A stretch of 64,000 nt of DNA. It comes from Alphaproteobacteria bacterium. GTDB lineage: Bacteria; Pseudomonadota; Alphaproteobacteria; UBA9219. The notes under the pieces are model-generated. The model was not told where the DNA came from. It saw nothing but the letters and a program-made list of their open reading frames with translations, and did no database searches. Positions within the stretch are counted from its first letter, which is position 1. Every line of letters starts with the position of its first letter. The position numbers and the translations under genes were made by a program. Below, piece after piece: positions 2,305-60,597 of this stretch. The stretch lies in assembly GCA_028866275.1 (NCBI GenBank), contig JAGWIK010000001.1, positions 139,306 through 203,305 on the forward strand, read 5' to 3'.

Positions 2305-3150
2305 TCAGGGTTCGGCAAAAGGGTCTTTGACGTTAACGCCCGGTGGGATGATGCCGTTCGGGCGGCCGGGTTTGAGAAGATAAATGTCCTCGGCATTATC
2401 CAGCGTTCTTTGCGTTGCCATGATGTCGCGAATGGGGGCTCTTTCTCCGAAAATGTAACCTTCGTCACGATAACCATGCGCGCTGTCGCCGTGAATGTGG
2501 CGTATCCAGCAATTGCCGGGATTTTTCTCGGCTTCCAGCCATTCCGGCGCATAGCGCATCCACCCCATCGTTATCGCGCGGACCGTGACGCCGTGGTTGA
2601 TGATAACCGCATGGCGGATGTCGTGCTTGCGCCAATCATCCAGCAGTGTGCCGAAAAAATGTTTGACTCTGATGACGATGTCGATGCGGCTCTCGCCCAA
2701 AGGCGATTTGGCGTAAACTCGTCCATTGAAGTCAATATGCTTTTGATAATCGGCGGCCTCGTTCGGGTGCTGTTCCGTGTAGGAACCGTCATCCAGGCCA
2801 TCGAAAAGCCCTGCCTTTTGTTCAAATAAAAACGGATCCTCGCGATAGGTCAGGGTGCCTGAAGCATGATCAAATTTTCTGCCCAAGGGGCGCAGGACAT
2901 GAAAAGCCGTCTCGCGCGCGCGGTAATACGGGCTGTACCAGACGCGGATTTTCCCGAAATGCTCCGGGTCTTTCCCTTGCGCTTCGAGAAGATGGTTGGC
3001 AAGAAAATTACCGGCACTCTCGGCCTGCTCGACCCCTCTCTCCGTCAGGCGGATCGCATGATCTGCCTTGGTTTGATAAAGACGGCGATTAATATTGCCT
3101 TCGGTTTCGCCATGGCGAACAAGGTAGAGATTGATTTTACTGTCGGCCAT
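2305..3150 (-). CDS. Histidine phosphatase family protein (phosphoglycerate-mutase-like)
   Basis: N-terminal LYLVRHGETEGN is the RHG catalytic motif. 281 aa. Confidence 0.8.
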   Translation of the reverse strand: MADSKINLYLVRHGETEGNINRRLYQTKADHAIRLTERGVEQAESAGNFLANHLLEAQGKDPEHFGKIRVWYSPYYRARETAFHVLRPLGRKFDHASGTLTYREDPFLFEQKAGLFDGLDDGSYTEQHPNEAADYQKHIDFNGRVYAKSPLGESRIDIVIRVKHFFGTLLDDWRKHDIRHAVIINHGVTVRAITMGWMRYAPEWLEAEKNPGNCWIRHIHGDSAHGYRDEGYIFGERAPIRDIMATQRTLDNAEDIYLLKPGRPNGIIPPGVNVKDPFAEP

Positions 3151-3324
3151 TTTGACTTCTTTCTAACAGACAAAACCGTAATATGGGCTGTAAGCTTAGG
3201 CCATCTTCGGTGTTGTGCGAACATAAAATTGGGGTCCGGACATTAACCATAATGCTGCGGCGCGCTGGATTATATTGCCTGGCATATCTGTTCTTGGTAG
3301 CGTTTTGGGGTATTGGAATAACGG

Positions 3325-4421: not shown

Positions 4422-5593
4422 ATGCAGGCAATGCAACAATATTTTCGACCCCAGATTAACACGTTTACAGACAAGGCCAACTTCGTTTTGTATGGGGCTG
4501 CCGGCGCAGCTTTATGCGTGGGGGTCGAATATGCGACCAATATGCCGAAGTTAGTCATGGGGGCGGCATTTGTTGCCGCTGCTGCTTTCAACTATTTTCA
4601 TACAGTGGGGGCAAACTATATTTTGGATAGAAATTTTCCTCCCACGCCGGAAAAGAAATTGCCTGCCGGGTCAGAAGATTTACCCAATATGATGACGGGG
4701 GTCTCAGAAAAACTCGATGTTTCCTTGCCGCATCTTCATGTCATTGAGGAAAGAAAAGATAACTGGCTTAGTGAAAAGAATGGAATATTTTTGGAGGATG
4801 ATGTCAGGCCATTCACAAAAGACGACATCCGCAGTTACCGTGAACTGGAAGCAGCTGCACTCCTCAGAATAAACGCGAACGCCATGACCTATGGCACCAA
4901 AAAAACGGGCGTGATTGTTCAGGCAAGCTTGTAAAACTCCTGTTGCCTGAGGATAAGGCGTTTCTCATAGCGCATGAGCTCGGACATCAGGCGGCACGTC
5001 ATTTGTCAAAAGCGCGCGCCATTGCCATACTTGCGACGACGGCCAGTTATACCGGCTTCGCCAATTTTATCCTGACGACTTTCAGTAATTGGACGGGGTG
5101 GATGGCGCCTGCCTCGGGGATGGGTATCGCTTTAGGGTCGAGTTGGGCGTTGCCCAAAGTTCTACCTGACTCTGTGTGGAATAAGCATGGCCCTGTTCTG
5201 AAGTTTGCCAGCCCCGCACTTGGTATTGGGGCCATATTGGGCGTTTCTTATCTTAGCCATAATCCGCAGATTGCTGCGGCTTGGGGAATGGCGCTCGCTA
5301 CAAACCTAACGGCAAAAATGGTGTATGCGGGGTATAGCAGGGAAAATGAATTTCAAGCTGATCGCATCGGCGCGGAAACCATCGGCAATCCGCAACAGGC
5401 AGCCATAAGTTTGCAAAATATTCACGAGCATCTTCAGGTAAATGCGGACAAAGCTGCGGCGGGCACAGCTTTAAAAAAGACTTTGATACTTTGGGCGTTT
5501 GAAAGAGCGAAAGAACTTTTTTCCGAGAGCCCTCTCATAGACAAACGCATCAAGCGTTTGGAAAGAATGTCGATGACGCCCCCGATGCCTTAA
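4422..5593 (+). pseudogene. M48 (HtpX-like) zinc metallopeptidase split by a frameshift near 4925-4935
   Basis: ORF 4422..4934 gives the N-terminal TM region and ...NANAMTYG..VIVQASL. ORF 4943..5593 (TTG start) continues in another frame with LIAHELGHQAARH (HEXXH) and the ENEFQADRIG third-ligand motif. Translating that frame upstream of 4943 gives GKLVKLLLPEDKAFLIAHELGH. Together they form one canonical M48 catalytic core. Confidence 0.7.
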
Positions 5594-41644: not shown

Positions 41645-41741
41645 GCGGGAGACCGGCGCGGGCGAATCCGGTGCCAACCCGGTCAGGGCCGAAAGGCAGC
41701 AGCCGTAACATTTTCGATTCGGGTCGTGTCCGGTCTCCCAC
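41645..41741 (+). ncRNA. ffs: Signal recognition particle RNA (4.5S/SRP RNA, small bacterial type)
   Basis: GGGAGACCGG at the 5' end pairs with CCGGTCTCCC at the 3' end. The apex CCGGUCAGGGCCGAAAGGCAGCAGCC matches conserved SRP domain IV (compare E. coli CAGGUCAGGUCCGGAAGGAAGCAGCC). A T-rich tract follows. Confidence 0.8.
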
Positions 41742-41768
41742 TTGTTTTCCCGAACATGCCTGTCCCTG

Positions 41769-45876: not shown

Positions 45877-45951
45877 CTCTTTCCATTAACGAAACGGTAA
45901 GGCCGGATGGCGGAAAATGCCCTCCGGCCTTTCCCTTTTCCGAGATGATCC

Positions 45952-47586
45952 ATGACAGAATCCATGCCGCGCGAAACCATGTCTTATGACGTCCTGATTG
46001 TCGGCGCGGGGCCGGCGGGGCTGTCCTGCGCGATTAAAATCAAACAACTGGCGCAGGCCGAAAAGCGCGACATTTCCGTATGCGTGATCGATAAAGGGTC
46101 GGAAGTCGGCGCGCATCTGTTGTCGGGCGCGGTGTTCGAACCGCGTGCGCTGGATGAATTATTTCCCGACTGGCGCGACATGGGCGCGCCGCTGACCGTT
46201 CCCGCCGGCGAAGACCGTTTCTATTTTCTGACATCGCGCCGCGCTTTTCGCATGCCGACCCCGCCGCCGATGCATAACCACGGCAATTATGTCATCAGCC
46301 TCGGCCGTCTGGCCAAATGGCTGGCGGCGCAGGCGGAAAATCTGGGCGTCGAAATCTATCCCGGTTTCGCCGCCGCCGAGATTTTGTACGACGACAATGG
46401 CGCGGTGGCAGGCGTGGCCACCGGCGATGTCGGCATCGGCAAGGATGGCAACCAAACCGACCGTTTCACGCGCGGCGTCGAATTGCGCGCGCGCCAGACG
46501 GTGATCGCCGAAGGATGCCGCGGGTCGCTGGCCAAAATGCTGTTCGCCAAATTCAAATTGCGTAACGGATGCGACCCGCAAACTTATGGGCTCGGCATCA
46601 AGGAAGTTTGGGAAATCGATCCGGCCAAGCATCGCCCGGGCCATATTCAACACAGCATCGGCTGGCCGATGGATGCGCGCACCTATGGCGGGTCGTGGTT
46701 GTATCATTGGGAAAATAATCTGGTGTCGATCGGTTTTGTCGTCGGGCTGGATTACGAAAACCCCTATCTGTCGCCGTTCGAGGAATTTCAGCGTTTCAAA
46801 CAGCACCCGCATATCCGCGCCGTGCTGGAAGGCGGCAAGCGCCTGTCCTATGGCGCGCGCGCGTTGAGCGAGGGCGGGTTACAATCAATCCCCAAATTGA
46901 CGTTTCCCGGCGGCGTGCTGATCGGCGATGCGGCCGGATTTCTGAATGTGGCAAAGATCAAAGGCAATCACACCGCGATGAAATCGGGAATGGTCGCGGC
47001 GGAGGCATTGGTCGCTCATCTGGCGGGCGATGCTGTCGAAGTCGCCGATTACCGCGCACGGCTGGAAAAAACATGGCTGTGGGATGAACTATACGGCGTG
47101 CGCAATATTCGCCCCGCGTTCCGCGCGGGGTTGTGGGCGGGCATGTTGTACGGGGCGATCGACAATGTATTGCTGCGCGGCCGCGCGCCATGGACGTTCC
47201 ATAATCATGCGGACAATAAAACATTAAAGCCCGCGCGCGATTGTACCAAAATTGCCTATCCCAAACCTGACGGGGTGATCAGCTTTGATCGCCTGTCATC
47301 GGTGTTTTTGTCCAACACCAATCACGAAGAAGACCAACCCGCGCATTTGAAATTGCGCGACCCGTCGGTGGCGGTGAATACCAACCTGACGCTTTATGCC
47401 GGGCCGGAAGCGCGTTATTGCCCGGCGGGCGTGTACGAATTTGTCGAAGAAAAAGGCGCGCCGCGCCTGCAGATCAATGCGCAGAATTGCGTGCATTGCA
47501 AAACATGCGACATCAAAGACCCGACACAGAATATAGACTGGTGCGTGCCCGAAGGCGGCGGCGGGCCGAATTATCAGGATATGTAA
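45952..47586 (+). CDS. etfD: Electron-transfer flavoprotein-ubiquinone oxidoreductase
   Basis: [19 protein letters not shown] motif and C-terminal 4Fe-4S CPAGVYEF...[12 protein letters not shown]. 544 aa. Confidence 0.92.
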
Positions 47587-48485
47587 GCGCTGACACAGCG
47601 ATCGATCCCGCCCAGATCTTTGTGTATCGCGACATCCGCGAAGGCATGGGCGCGCAGCAAGGCGGCGACATCCTGCGCCTGATCAATGCCGACTTCGAAA
47701 ATGACGAACCCGTTTGCATTCAGGAACGCGGGCAATTGCGGGATCAGAAAACGATAGGGTTCAAGCCCGTCCGCGCCGCCGTCCAACGCCGCGCGCGGGT
47801 CGTGGTCGCGCACTTCAGGCATTAATGTTTCAATGTCGGCGGCGGGGATGTAAGGCGGATTGCTGATGATAATGTCGAACTTTCCCGTGATGCCGTCGAA
47901 CCAGTTGCCGGTGCGGAACGCCGCGCGCGTGTCGAGCCCAAGGCCGGCGGCATTTTGCGACGCCTGTGCGACGGCGCGCGGCGCGATGTCGATGCCCACC
48001 CCCGTGGCATGCGGCCATTCATGCAGCAACGCCAGCAACAGACAGCCCGTTCCCGTGCCGAGATCGAGTATCCGGGGGGCAAAGCTCTCACAAGAAATAG
48101 CGTCATTCCGGCGCAAGCCGGGATCCAGAGAAAAAGAACCGCTGGATTCCGGCTTGCGCCGGAATGACGACAGAACGGCTTCGACAAGGGTTTCGCTGTC
48201 CGGGCGCGGTTCCAGCGTGGCCTCGTTCATGCCGAAGGGCAGGCCCCAGAATTCGCGCTGGCCGATGATGCGCGCCACGGATTCGCGTTTTTCGCGGCGT
48301 TGGAGAAGGGTTTCTATTTTTTTGATTTCGGGAATGGTCGGTTCGCGTCGGGATTGGCTCAGCAAACCGGCACGGTCAAGGCCCAGCGCATGGCAGAATA
48401 ACAATCGCGCATCCAGCTGCGGATTGTCGACGCCTGCGATATTCAGGCGGTCGATGGCGGCGCGCAATGTATCGGCCAGCGTCAC
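47574..48485 (-). CDS. prmC: Release-factor glutamine N5-methyltransferase, carrying a 24-codon in-frame palindromic-element insertion
   Basis: NPPY motif and [11 protein letters not shown] motif. The extra segment [30 protein letters not shown] sits between the N-terminal domain and the SAM motif. Confidence 0.88.
48098..48170. repeat. About 72-bp palindromic element (RPE/MITE-like) inserted in frame into prmC
   Basis: cgtcattccggcgcaagccgggatccag - agaaaaagaaccg - ctggattccggcttgcgccggaatgacg forms 27-bp inverted arms with 1 mismatch. Other frames read ...IPAQAGIQ... and ...WIPACAGMT..., typical of this class of repeat. Confidence 0.7.
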
Positions 48486-49549
48486 GTTCCGTTCAATTCC
48501 GCCAGTTTTTCGGCTTCGTCGCGTTGGATCAGTTCGTCGATAAAGGCATCCAGCCCTTCGCCGTTGATGACGTCGTCGATGTTATACAGGGTTTTTTCGA
48601 TGCGATGGTCGGACACGCGGCCCTGCGGGAAATTATAGGTGCGGATGCGTTCGCTGCGGTCGCCGGTGCCGACCTGGCTTTTGCGTTCCGCCGCGTGGGC
48701 GGCCTTGATGGCGCGGTCTTTCTGTTCGTACATGCGGCTGCGCAGAATCTTCATCGCCTTGGCGCGGTTCTTGATCTGCGACCGTTCTTCCTGCATCGCC
48801 ACGACGATGCCGGTGGGCAGATGGGTGATGCGCACGGCGCTTTCGGTTTTATTGACATGCTGGCCGCCGGCGCCCGACGCGCGATAGACGTCTATTTTCA
48901 GGTCTTTGTCGTCGATGACGATGTCGGTTTCTTCCATTTCAGGCAGCACGGCGACCGTGGCTGTCGATGTGTGGACGCGGCCCTGACTTTCCGTCTGCGG
49001 TACGCGCTGGACGCGATGCACGCCGGACTCGAACTTCAACCGCGCGAACACGCCGCGTCCGCTGACCTCGGCGATACCTTCCTTCAGCCCGCCCAGATCG
49101 TTTTCCGACAATTCCATGACCTCGAACCGCCAACCGCGATGGGCCGCATATTTGCGGTACATGTCGAATAATAATGCCGCGAACAGCCCCGCTTCGTCGC
49201 CGCCCGCGCCCGCGCGGATTTCCAGAATGGCGTTGCGTTCATCCGCCGCATCCTTGGGCAACAGCATTTTCTGAACCTGCAGTTCCAGAACGGGAATACG
49301 GGGTTTCAGGGCTTCTATTTCTTTTTTTGCTTCGGCCGCCATATCCGCGTCGGACAACAGGCTTTCGGCGTCGGACAGTTCGCGGCGCGCGCGGTCAAGT
49401 TCGCCGATGGCCTCGCACACGGGCGTCAGGTCGGAATATTCCTTGGATAATTTTGCGAATTGGTCGGGCGCGACGTCGGGTTGCGACATCAAATGCCGCA
49501 ATTCATCGTGCCGCGCCATGACGCGGGAAAGGGTTTCGGAGAGGGACAT
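48482..49549 (-). CDS. prfA: Peptide chain release factor 1
   Basis: GGQ motif (SGAGGQHVNKTESA) and PxT-type decoding region. 355 aa. Confidence 0.95.
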   Translation of the reverse strand: MSLSETLSRVMARHDELRHLMSQPDVAPDQFAKLSKEYSDLTPVCEAIGELDRARRELSDAESLLSDADMAAEAKKEIEALKPRIPVLELQVQKMLLPKDAADERNAILEIRAGAGGDEAGLFAALLFDMYRKYAAHRGWRFEVMELSENDLGGLKEGIAEVSGRGVFARLKFESGVHRVQRVPQTESQGRVHTSTATVAVLPEMEETDIVIDDKDLKIDVYRASGAGGQHVNKTESAVRITHLPTGIVVAMQEERSQIKNRAKAMKILRSRMYEQKDRAIKAAHAAERKSQVGTGDRSERIRTYNFPQGRVSDHRIEKTLYNIDDVINGEGLDAFIDELIQRDEAEKLAELNGT

Positions 49550-56315: not shown

Positions 56316-57187
56316 TGACGGCGCCGGATACATCGCCATCCGGCCTTGTTTCCAGCTATGTTGATTTATTGCGGCGGCATCCGGCACAACCGGATGCCGC
56401 CGTTTCTTTTATATCCGACGCTTTGCCGCTGCGCGGTAAAAATCCGTGCGCGTTATTGCTGTCGCCCCACCCTGACGATGAATGCCTGGCCGGCGCGTTG
56501 CCGTTGCGCTTGAAGCGCGAACAGGGCTGGCAGATCATCAATATCGCCGTGACGCTGGGCAGCAAAACGGATCACAGGCCGGCGCGGTTGGGCGAATTGG
56601 CGCGCGCCTGCGCCGTGTTGGGGTTCGATGCGTTCACGCCTGCCACGATGGGGTTTGATGATGTGACGGAAGCCGCGCGCGCCGCCGACCGCGCCGCGTG
56701 GCAGAAAAAAGCCGCGCGTATCGCCGAACTGGTCGGGCATTACAAGCCGCAGGCGATTTTCATGCCTCATGCGCAGGACGCGCACCCGACCCATATCGGC
56801 ACGCATCTTCTGGGCATGGATGCGCTGGCCCTGCAACCGGTGGAATTTTCCTGCGCCGTGGTCGAAACCGAATATTGGCAACCGAACCCGTCGCCCAATT
56901 TGATGATCGGCGTCGGGGCGGCAGATGCGGCGACATTGCTGTCGGCCTTGGCGTGCCATGCGGGCGAAGTCGCGCGCAATCCCTATGATGTCCGGTTTCC
57001 GGCCTATTTAATCGACAATGTGCGACGCGGGTCGGAACGCGTGGGCGGCGCGGGCGCGCCATCCGCCGACATGGACTTTGCCATGCTGTACCGTTACGGG
57101 CTGTGGAAAAGCGGGCGGTTCATGCCGTCGGCGTTGGGGCGGATTATTGGGGCCGGCGATCTATTGAAAGAAATCCTGTCGGGTTAA
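56315..57187 (+). CDS. PIG-L/LmbE-family N-acetylglucosaminyl deacetylase
   Basis: LLLSPHPDDECLAGA is the PIG-L signature. ATGA overlap with the DJ-1 gene stop. The 423-aa ORF start at 55916 is spurious. Confidence 0.75.
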   Translation: MTAPDTSPSGLVSSYVDLLRRHPAQPDAAVSFISDALPLRGKNPCALLLSPHPDDECLAGALPLRLKREQGWQIINIAVTLGSKTDHRPARLGELARACAVLGFDAFTPATMGFDDVTEAARAADRAAWQKKAARIAELVGHYKPQAIFMPHAQDAHPTHIGTHLLGMDALALQPVEFSCAVVETEYWQPNPSPNLMIGVGAADAATLLSALACHAGEVARNPYDVRFPAYLIDNVRRGSERVGGAGAPSADMDFAMLYRYGLWKSGRFMPSALGRIIGAGDLLKEILSG

Positions 57188-57195
57188 AAGAAAAA

Positions 57196-57217
57196 GGGCT
57201 GCGGTTTCCCGCAGCCC
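57196..57217. terminator. Bidirectional terminator between the PIG-L gene and groEL
   Basis: gggctgcgg-tttc-ccgcagccc hairpin with a T-run downstream on the groEL strand. Confidence 0.6.
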
Positions 57218-57243
57218 TCGTTCTTTGGTGATGGAAAGATGGA

Positions 57244-60548: not shown

Positions 60549-60567
60549 GCCTGCATCCCAAAAATAA

Positions 60568-60597
60568 AGCCCCCGGGAAACCGGGGGCTTTTGTTTT
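60568..60597. terminator. Bidirectional rho-independent terminator (SDR gene / phasin gene)
   Basis: gcccccgg-gaaa-ccgggggc with a T-run on one side and an A-run on the other. Confidence 0.65.

Follow-up and report, generated by a model that had tools for sequence, protein, structure and literature searches.

Within prmC, the gene for the release-factor N5-glutamine methyltransferase, the 64,000-nucleotide stretch of an uncultured alphaproteobacterial genome analysed here (contig JAGWIK010000001.1; hereafter the window) contains a 69-bp palindrome that is very probably a head-to-head dimer of a CGTC-1-type repetitive extragenic palindromic (REP) sequence, a hairpin repeat that has come to lie in a permissive linker at the enzyme's surface and is translated as a loop predicted to be disordered. 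The CGTC-1 family was defined by an unpaired CGTC tag (variants TGTC and CCTC), an 8-bp stem with complementary A/T at its positions 1-2, a 4-nt loop and a CCA tail (Di Nocera, De Gregorio & Rocco 2013, BMC Genomics 14:522, PMC3733652). Its members are found mostly in Alphaproteobacteria; head-to-head dimers predominate, and intragenic dimers encode 20-30 amino acids. No dedicated transposase and no association with a REP-associated tyrosine transposase (RAYT) is known for them (Di Nocera et al. 2013).

The inverted repeat consists of two 28-nt arms, at 48101-48128 (CGTCATTCCGGCGCAAGCCGGGATCCAG) and 48142-48169 (CTGGATTCCGGCTTGCGCCGGAATGACG), that are complementary at 27 of their 28 positions and are separated by 13 nt. 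A first-pass annotation, made from the letters of this DNA alone, had described a 72-bp element with 27-bp arms; the in-frame palindrome and its 13-bp spacer are borne out, but the size has to be corrected to 69 bp and the arms to 28 nt. In prmC the palindrome starts at the second base of codon 106 and stops at the first base of codon 129; it covers 23 codons in frame, and the preservation of the reading frame that had been noticed is thus confirmed. Such an arm pattern is expected 0.00 times by chance in shuffles of the window, where the palindrome ranks first among all short-range inverted repeats, and its predicted folding energies are far from those of random sequence both as RNA (-56.3 kcal/mol, z = -9.2) and as DNA (-37.5 kcal/mol, z = -10.6).

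Each arm also forms a hairpin of its own, and it is in these single hairpins that the features of the family are found. Both units start with CGTC, both have the 4-nt loop GCAA and the tail CCA, and the stem ATTCCGGC/GCCGGAAT is perfect in unit 1 and has one mismatch (GCCGGGAT) in unit 2; the two units are arranged with their tags outward. Two of the three reading frames are open on either strand, the third meeting a TGA within GGAATGACG, and translation reproduces the three peptide flavours that had been recognised in the element, including VIPAQAGIQ. The frame used by PrmC, which ends in LDPGLRRND, is the one read in intragenic CGTC-1 dimers of Rickettsia conorii, whose products, SFLRKQESS...LDSRFRRND and SFPRKRESF...LDSRFRGND, it resembles at the peptide level (Di Nocera et al. 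2013). The relationship to the Rickettsia palindromic elements (RPEs) that had been proposed can therefore be upheld, since every sequence feature of the CGTC-1 definition is present and CGTC-1 has been equated with RPE-6 in R. conorii, and with dRS3 in Neisseria (Di Nocera et al. 2013).

The enzyme that carries this insert appears to be intact. Its domain assignment comprises PrmC_N (1.4e-18) plus methyltransferase domains, its top fold match is 2b3t_A, the PrmC-RF1 complex (TM 0.92, normalised to the target), and the family-invariant residues are present, including G143, G145, G147 and N209-P-P-Y212. The alignment to Escherichia coli HemK flanks the insert on both sides and places 2 residues opposite 26 of the query (residues 112-137), so that PrmC has about 24 extra residues, as had been estimated at first. 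In the AlphaFold2 model (59 sequences; mean pLDDT 91.9, pTM 0.87) the sole low-confidence stretch lies within residues 109-133 (pLDDT 47 for block 111-120 and 50 for block 121-130), between helix 97-108, the first of the methyltransferase domain, and strand β1 (138-142; motif I), in a loop that is not conserved, and the model is confident everywhere outside the insert. Rossmann-type methyltransferases bind cofactor and substrate at the C-terminal ends of their strands; because the insert enters at the N-terminal end of β1, it should be distant from the S-adenosylmethionine (SAM)/NPPY site. The model, with its disordered insert and intact catalytic motifs, thus favours the earlier suggestion of a tolerated surface loop: PrmC would presumably still be a functional enzyme and the insert peptide a by-product without a function of its own.

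What is new here is prmC as a host gene and the uncultured lineage that carries it; both the repeat family and its invasion of coding regions were already known. A prmC/hemK insertion is recorded neither among the intragenic cases listed by Di Nocera et al. (2013) nor in the open literature searched. With the described CGTC-1 repeats the element shares tag, 8-bp AT-starting stem, 4-nt loop, tail, head-to-head arrangement and the intragenic coding of 20-30 amino acids, but it differs in its carrier, an uncultured alphaproteobacterial metagenome-assembled genome (MAG), in its number (1 dimer per 64 kb, against tens to thousands of copies per genome in the described families) and in the spread of the family as found here, which, with Chloroflexota, Planctomycetota, Acidobacteriota, Binatia and others, exceeds the five phyla reported. 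RPE-6 is similar in that it lies in frame in housekeeping genes, encodes a hydrophilic peptide of the type SF[PRL]RK.ES...LDSRFR[RG]ND and is presumed to be tolerated on the protein surface; its host, however, is Rickettsia, whereas ours is an alphaproteobacterial MAG of 59% GC with a free-living-type synteny. The name RPE should consequently not be applied to the prmC element, though the superfamily is shared. RPE-1, which is better known, is an unrelated and longer palindrome. One variant in the prmC orthologs (ATTCCCGCGAAAGCGGGAAT) fits the dRS3 pattern of Neisseria (ATTCCC-N8-GGGAAT), but the dRS3 repeats are intergenic and clustered. Prophages and recombinases of the IS110 type also use them for integration, and nothing similar was seen at the prmC element. 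The REPINs, reportedly REP doublets that form hairpins, and the RAYT-mobilised GTAG REPs likewise combine two inverted hairpins across a short spacer, can fold as one long hairpin and conserve the hairpins rather than the spacer; their tag, however, is GTAG instead of CGTC, and a RAYT link is not known for the CGTC REPs.

To trace the distribution of the repeat, the 24-nt arm (TCATTCCGGCGCAAGCCGGAATCC) was searched for, in exact form, in a single genome of each GTDB species; it is present in at least 119 stretches, and these represent many phyla. Among the matches listed, the carriers belong to Alpha-, Beta- and Gammaproteobacteria, Chloroflexota/Dehalococcoidia, Planctomycetota, Acidobacteriota, Binatia, Elusimicrobiota, Bacteroidota and others, and include the cultured Ottowia beijingensis, Duganella sp. 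and Fulvimonas soli; several loci per genome occur, and seven CGTC units lie in a single Dehalococcoidia MAG contig (L005, CBDBDN010000005.1). The identity of a non-coding 24-mer across phyla could reflect either horizontal spread or a very strong sequence constraint. In these matches the inverted partner typically lies 14-40 nt past the arm, the dimers are tags-outward in 42 cases versus 3 in the opposite arrangement, and the partner is often a different self-complementary stem variant (ATCCCGGC/GCCGGGAT, ACCCCGGC/GCCGGGGT, ATACCGGC/GCCGGTAT or ACACCGGC/GCCGGTGT); the loops are of the GNAA/GNAG type (GCAA, GAAA, GCAG, GAAG, GGAA and others). In 43 distinct partner units, which the search pattern had not selected, 98.3% of the cells of the single-unit hairpin pair, with 45 double-sided changes, a level reached by none of 500 shuffles, although the GC core was in part fixed by the regular expression with which the units were gathered; stem positions 2-3, where most of the covariation lies, were left free. 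Slid registers of the same units pair at 46% or less. This covariation of the stem across genomes supports the view that the single hairpin is the conserved unit of the family. A stop-free-frame test for the intragenic location of 129 arms proved uninformative in GC-rich DNA and was not used.

The L005 contig also contains the CGTC unit in same-strand tandem arrays (3084-3314 and 4920-5068) with a period of 61-64 nt and one 83-nt gap, interleaved with hairpin-less half-units CAACCGTCA(T/C)TCC. Head-to-tail arrangements had been considered negligible in the family (Di Nocera et al. 2013), in contrast to these arrays. A CRISPR explanation of the copies, which recur at about 62 nt, was rejected, because the would-be spacers recur too and inverted dimers of this unit are found in other places. 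Another candidate, a second prmC with an insert in Desulfurivibrio (L097, from a tblastn match to residues 94-138), was likewise discarded: it is an intergenic dimer and only the repeat-encoded peptide had matched.

The element had at first been called similar to a MITE, a miniature inverted-repeat transposable element. The dispersed, palindromic nature of the repeat stands, and two 28-nt inverted arms around a short core, together with longer composites of 105-145 nt that have conserved internal sequence (see below), are what an insertion sequence (IS) deletion derivative with terminal inverted repeats, a DDE transposase and target-site duplications might look like. MITEs such as Correia and the Coxiella QMITE1/2 (PMC5896051) are also small, non-coding, palindromic, dispersed and sometimes fused in frame to open reading frames (ORFs), though the REP that QMITE2 carries is of the GTAG and not the CGTC type (PMC5896051). 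The label itself is a loose one. Each arm of the prmC element is itself a hairpin, partner arms are frequently other stem variants rather than copies of one terminal repeat, and heterodimers, single units and same-strand arrays occur. There are no TA ends, and no consistent flanking direct repeat is present at the prmC junctions of the window or of the four orthologous loci compared with it (L200, L201, L203 and L205). Neither a transposase nor a parental IS has been reported for CGTC repeats (Di Nocera et al. 2013), and no search for a parental IS was made here. A classical MITE is thus a very improbable identity for the element.

Comparison with orthologs bears on the history of the insert. 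In the best 120 PrmC homologs (about 55-69% identical) the linker varies from 6 to 92 residues and exceeds 15 residues in 43. Ortholog DNA was compared for eight loci with a CGTC insert (L200, L201, L203-L207 and L211) and three without one (L208, L209 and L210); the order lysC-NMO-rodZ-ispG-(x)-prfA-prmC is common to the window and the ortholog loci, several of which also adjoin the electron transfer flavoprotein-ubiquinone oxidoreductase (ETF-QO) gene. The expectation that the insert would be specific to one lineage was only half right, as related alphaproteobacterial MAGs with 64-69% identity in PrmC (L200, L201 and L203-L207) carry related CGTC dimers in the same linker, but these dimers are not identical to that of the window. 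The same 24 residues were not found in PrmC of distant taxa. The first unit starts at one and the same nucleotide in the window, L200, L201, L203 and L205, immediately behind the codons for AVL (...YTR T|CGTC ATTCC...), and its start is shifted by 11 extra residues in L204 and by 4 in L207. A downstream junction, GACG-A followed by two codons and then ILD, is common to L200, L201, L205 and L206. The reading frame is kept in all orthologs carrying the insert, even in L205, where the frame shifts inside the element and still reads through. Eroded copies are found as well, since L206 is left with just its second unit and P0005 with just its first. The L211 element is a heterodimer (TGTC-ATACCCGC... 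with ...ACTCCCGC) that has a 19-nt spacer, lies 5 codons further downstream and uses the other open frame; judged by these differences, it clearly represents a separate insertion. The insert-free L208, L209 and L210 have the same synteny and plain native-type linkers of 7-8 amino acids (KLKTDAHR, KQGRGSKR and KLGKNGRT).

Hairpins of other kinds have also entered this linker. The PrmC gene of L121 (3001-3927) has four unrelated 8-9-bp hairpins there. Further repeat-type peptides of PrmC linkers are GFGI[QR]D...SPNPESRIPNP and PLAGG.../...PLPQGER, and the homologs listed with other linker hairpin families are P0023, P0064, P0073, P0076, P0007, P0008, P0026, P0028, P0055, P0070, P0080, P0092 and P0095. 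Single extra CGTC units are located on or just after the prmC stop codon in L200 (2115-2141) and L211 (10938-10964), the 3' end of a gene being a typical REP site.

The window's 13-nt spacer is a short form, its homologs in the orthologs measuring about 50-85 nt. The longer prmC inserts (105-141 nt; Table 1) share a spacer with a third hairpin, which has an AGAC loop and covarying stems (GTCGCGC/GCGCGAC, CTGCACCGC/GCGGTGCAG, CCGCCGC/GCGGCGG and GCCGCGC/GCGCGGC). This composite element of 105-145 nt also occurs outside prmC: its product, SFPRKRESS-[AV]SDSE[HR]...-LDSRFRGND, is encoded in the short non-PrmC ORFs P0121, P0122, P0124 and P0125, and in P0123. A census of such host proteins by peptide yielded little, a 27-aa query being too short, a 40-aa query giving only 4 candidates and an exhaustive HMMER search with P0122 only 4 matches at E<=0.001. 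P0121, P0122, P0124 and P0125 are probably spurious ORFs spanning repeats. In P0123 (252 aa, with a thioredoxin-type CxxC) the called N-terminus starts inside the composite (VSDSERMTQ...LDSRFRGND), and its start codon has probably been misplaced.

In its conservation the arms of the insert differ sharply from the host gene. In 28 ortholog pairs, of the codons that specify the same residue 84.1% are identical within the arms (n=314) versus 43.7% in the remainder of the gene (n=4739), third positions are identical in 72.8% versus 41.1%, and the codons flanking the insert vary freely right up to the junction, which forms a sharp boundary. The spacer begins alike in L201 and L205, but their first arms differ by a compensatory pair (ATTCCCGC/GCGGGAAT versus ATTCCGGC/GCCGGAAT) that turns FPRKRES into FRRTPES while the stem is kept. 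In the ortholog alignment 100% of the cells of the two local hairpins pair, with five covarying pairs; in the long inter-arm hairpin several pairs are broken, for the most part because of the L203 heterodimer. From the compensatory changes, the synonymous conservation and the local pairing we infer that the conserved object is probably the hairpin rather than the peptide. The preservation of the frame in every carrier is what one would expect had the segment been selected at the amino-acid level as an adaptive interaction loop of PrmC, its palindromic DNA being incidental. That this is so we regard as scarcely credible, for non-conservative P/R swaps occur while pairing is kept, the L205 element shifts frame internally, synonymous conservation is inexplicable by selection on amino acids, and the segment is predicted to be disordered and is missing from most PrmCs.

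A more serious question is whether the hairpins are a cis-acting element of the prfA-prmC operon, kept by purifying selection on the nucleic acid. They could be, for instance, a barrier to 3'-exonucleases on the mRNA, a partial attenuator that uncouples PrfA and PrmC levels, a place where translation pauses between folding units or a DNA site to which a protein binds. The excess conservation of the arms over the synonymous sites of the host gene, with its sharp limit, the changes that preserve hairpins and alter the peptide, and the very stable predicted RNA structure are all as such a role would have them, and REPs have been proposed in the literature as RNA elements and mRNA stabilisers. Yet the three insert-free syntenic sisters do wholly without the element, copies erode (L206 and P0005 have each lost one arm, and the window's spacer is shortened), and consensus scans for a terminator or a promoter gave no convincing signal, so that both of these roles were set aside. 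In addition, the composite lies at unrelated loci and the arm occurs across phyla in arbitrary contexts, which allows the conservation to derive from the family. Because the composite is a dispersed family, the high conservation of the prmC copies may stem from the family consensus and relative youth rather than from selection at this locus, and an operon-specific function seems improbable.

How often the linker has been invaded is only partly answered by phylogeny. A tree built from PrfA+PrmC (577 columns; 300 bootstraps) joins L203 to L211 (93%) as the ingroup's deepest branch. It puts the window, L200, L201 and L206 into one core clade that also holds the insert-free L208, L209 and L210, in which L208 is sister to L200 (82%) and L209 and L210 go with L206 (98%). 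Neither a simple single gain nor simple multiple gains explain this patchy pattern cleanly; a PrmC-only neighbor-joining tree is too poorly resolved to tell whether the insert-bearers form a clade. The junctions that they have in common speak for inheritance of a single allele in L200, L201, L205 and L206 at least. Against single inheritance, the native-type linkers of the nested insert-free lineages could not be re-created after a loss. It had been argued that the spacer with the AGAC hairpin was specific to prmC, being present in 0 of the matches listed (at least 119 loci), and hence pointed to a single ancient insertion; this was withdrawn, as P0121-P0125 carry the composite in non-PrmC ORFs. 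Possible histories are one old insertion followed by erosion and by exchange of alleles between lineages, repeated site-preferring insertion, or a mixture of the two. On the DNA compared here it is secure that the PrmC linker has received hairpin repeats more than once, with at least two separate CGTC events and one of another family. A bolder proposal, which we consider rather unlikely, is that the linker is a preferred and not merely a tolerant landing site for CGTC-type and other hairpin repeats, the insertions at the identical nucleotide being either independent or spread by recombination and far more recent than the host genes.

The likeliest mechanism is a passive one, in which a CGTC hairpin repeat lodges in the permissive surface linker of PrmC and is translated as a disordered loop. 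Some machinery would most likely recognise the repeats themselves in the form of single-stranded DNA or RNA hairpins and propagate or maintain them, and the PrmC linker of this alphaproteobacterial group would act as a permissive sink for them, more than once. The apex of the hairpin (GCGCAAGC in the window copy at 48143-48169, GCGAAAGC in its relatives) is one that we take to match the extra-stable DNA mini-hairpin d(GCGAAAGC); this identity, if true, would favour folding of the CGTC unit as single-stranded DNA. Several observations weigh against a translated mobile repeat. A second CGTC dimer was not found in the 64-kb window, which leaves a multi-copy status in the source genome presumptive; outside prmC, CGTC-1 units were found neither there nor in L201 (21 kb) or L203 (11 kb), and L208, L209 and L210 (about 21 kb each) have none at all. 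No RAYT/IS200-like motif (HUH+Y, NPV(R/K)AG) was found in any frame of the window by a rough regular expression applied to the window only, and no mobilising enzyme for CGTC REPs is known in the literature. Finally, an old and purely neutral passenger would not be expected to show the strong synonymous-site conservation of the arms, which calls for selection on the hairpins or else for a recent insertion or homogenisation. The distribution of the family points, nonetheless, to mobility of the prmC element, and the identification as a CGTC-1 dimer remains by far our preferred one. No Rfam family and no entry of a plasmid collection matched the element. One other CGTC-tagged hairpin, with unrelated stems and a 5-nt loop, lies at 348-375 of L203.

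The coordinates of the locus are given in Table 1. The prfA stop and the GTG start of prmC overlap as GTGA (48482-48485), which suggests translational coupling, and the ETF-QO gene is convergent with prmC, their 3' ends overlapping by 13 nt (47574-47586). The NCBI call of PrmC, at 301 aa, is 2 residues shorter. Elsewhere in the window, hairpins at 45892-45938, 57187-57226 and 60560-60597 lie between A/T runs; they resemble ordinary intrinsic terminators, which may be bidirectional, and are unrelated to the CGTC family. The sole Rfam match of the window is a small bacterial signal recognition particle (SRP) RNA (RF00169, 60.8 bits) at 41646-41743 (+).

Table 1. Features of the prfA-prmC locus in window coordinates and, in the last row, AGAC-hairpin inserts in the coordinates of the orthologous loci
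Feature	Position	Strand	Remarks
prmC (release-factor N5-glutamine methyltransferase)	47574..48485	-	303 aa, GTG start; GTGTG (143-147) and NPPY (209-212) intact
prfA (release factor 1)	48482..49549	-	upstream gene of the operon; stop overlaps prmC start
Variable PrmC linker, residues 106-138	48072..48170	-	between helix 97-108 and strand β1; predicted disordered
Complete head-to-head CGTC-1 REP dimer, tags outward	48101..48169	.	69 bp = 23 codons in the prmC frame
REP unit 1	48143..48169	-	mRNA sense: CGTC + ATTCCGGC + loop GCAA + GCCGGAAT + tail CCA; perfect stem; codes (S)SFRRKPESS, PrmC residues 106-115
Spacer, 13 nt	48129..48141	-	T-rich in mRNA sense; codes part of GSFS
REP unit 2	48101..48127	+ (CGTC-first)	CGTC + ATTCCGGC + GCAA + GCCGGGAT + CCA; one stem mismatch; codes LDPGLRRND in mRNA sense
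prmC inserts with AGAC-loop hairpin	L201:10317-10421, L203:6317-6424, L204:2849-2953, L206:2136-3017, L207:58-996		

That a translated palindromic repeat can persist as a harmless protein loop was already known from Rickettsia and other bacteria; what goes beyond the textbook picture is only the recurrence of repeats in the PrmC linker, patchy yet precise in position, and the strong conservation of the nucleotides. The prmC locus offers a natural series of filled and empty sites, with the repeat at the same nucleotide, half-copies, a different dimer, other hairpin families or nothing at all. Within a coding region, moreover, constraint on the nucleic acid can be separated from neutral drift, the arms being about twice as conserved synonymously as the host gene. 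Recognition of the family is also of use in annotation, where it avoids the over-reading of "novel" loops and flags spurious short ORFs (…FPRKRES…, …IPAFAGMT…) and misplaced starts. If the PrmC linker were indeed a preferred site, the filled and empty pairs L200/L208, L206/L210 and window/L208 would reveal the target and the junction rules by which CGTC REPs are mobilised.

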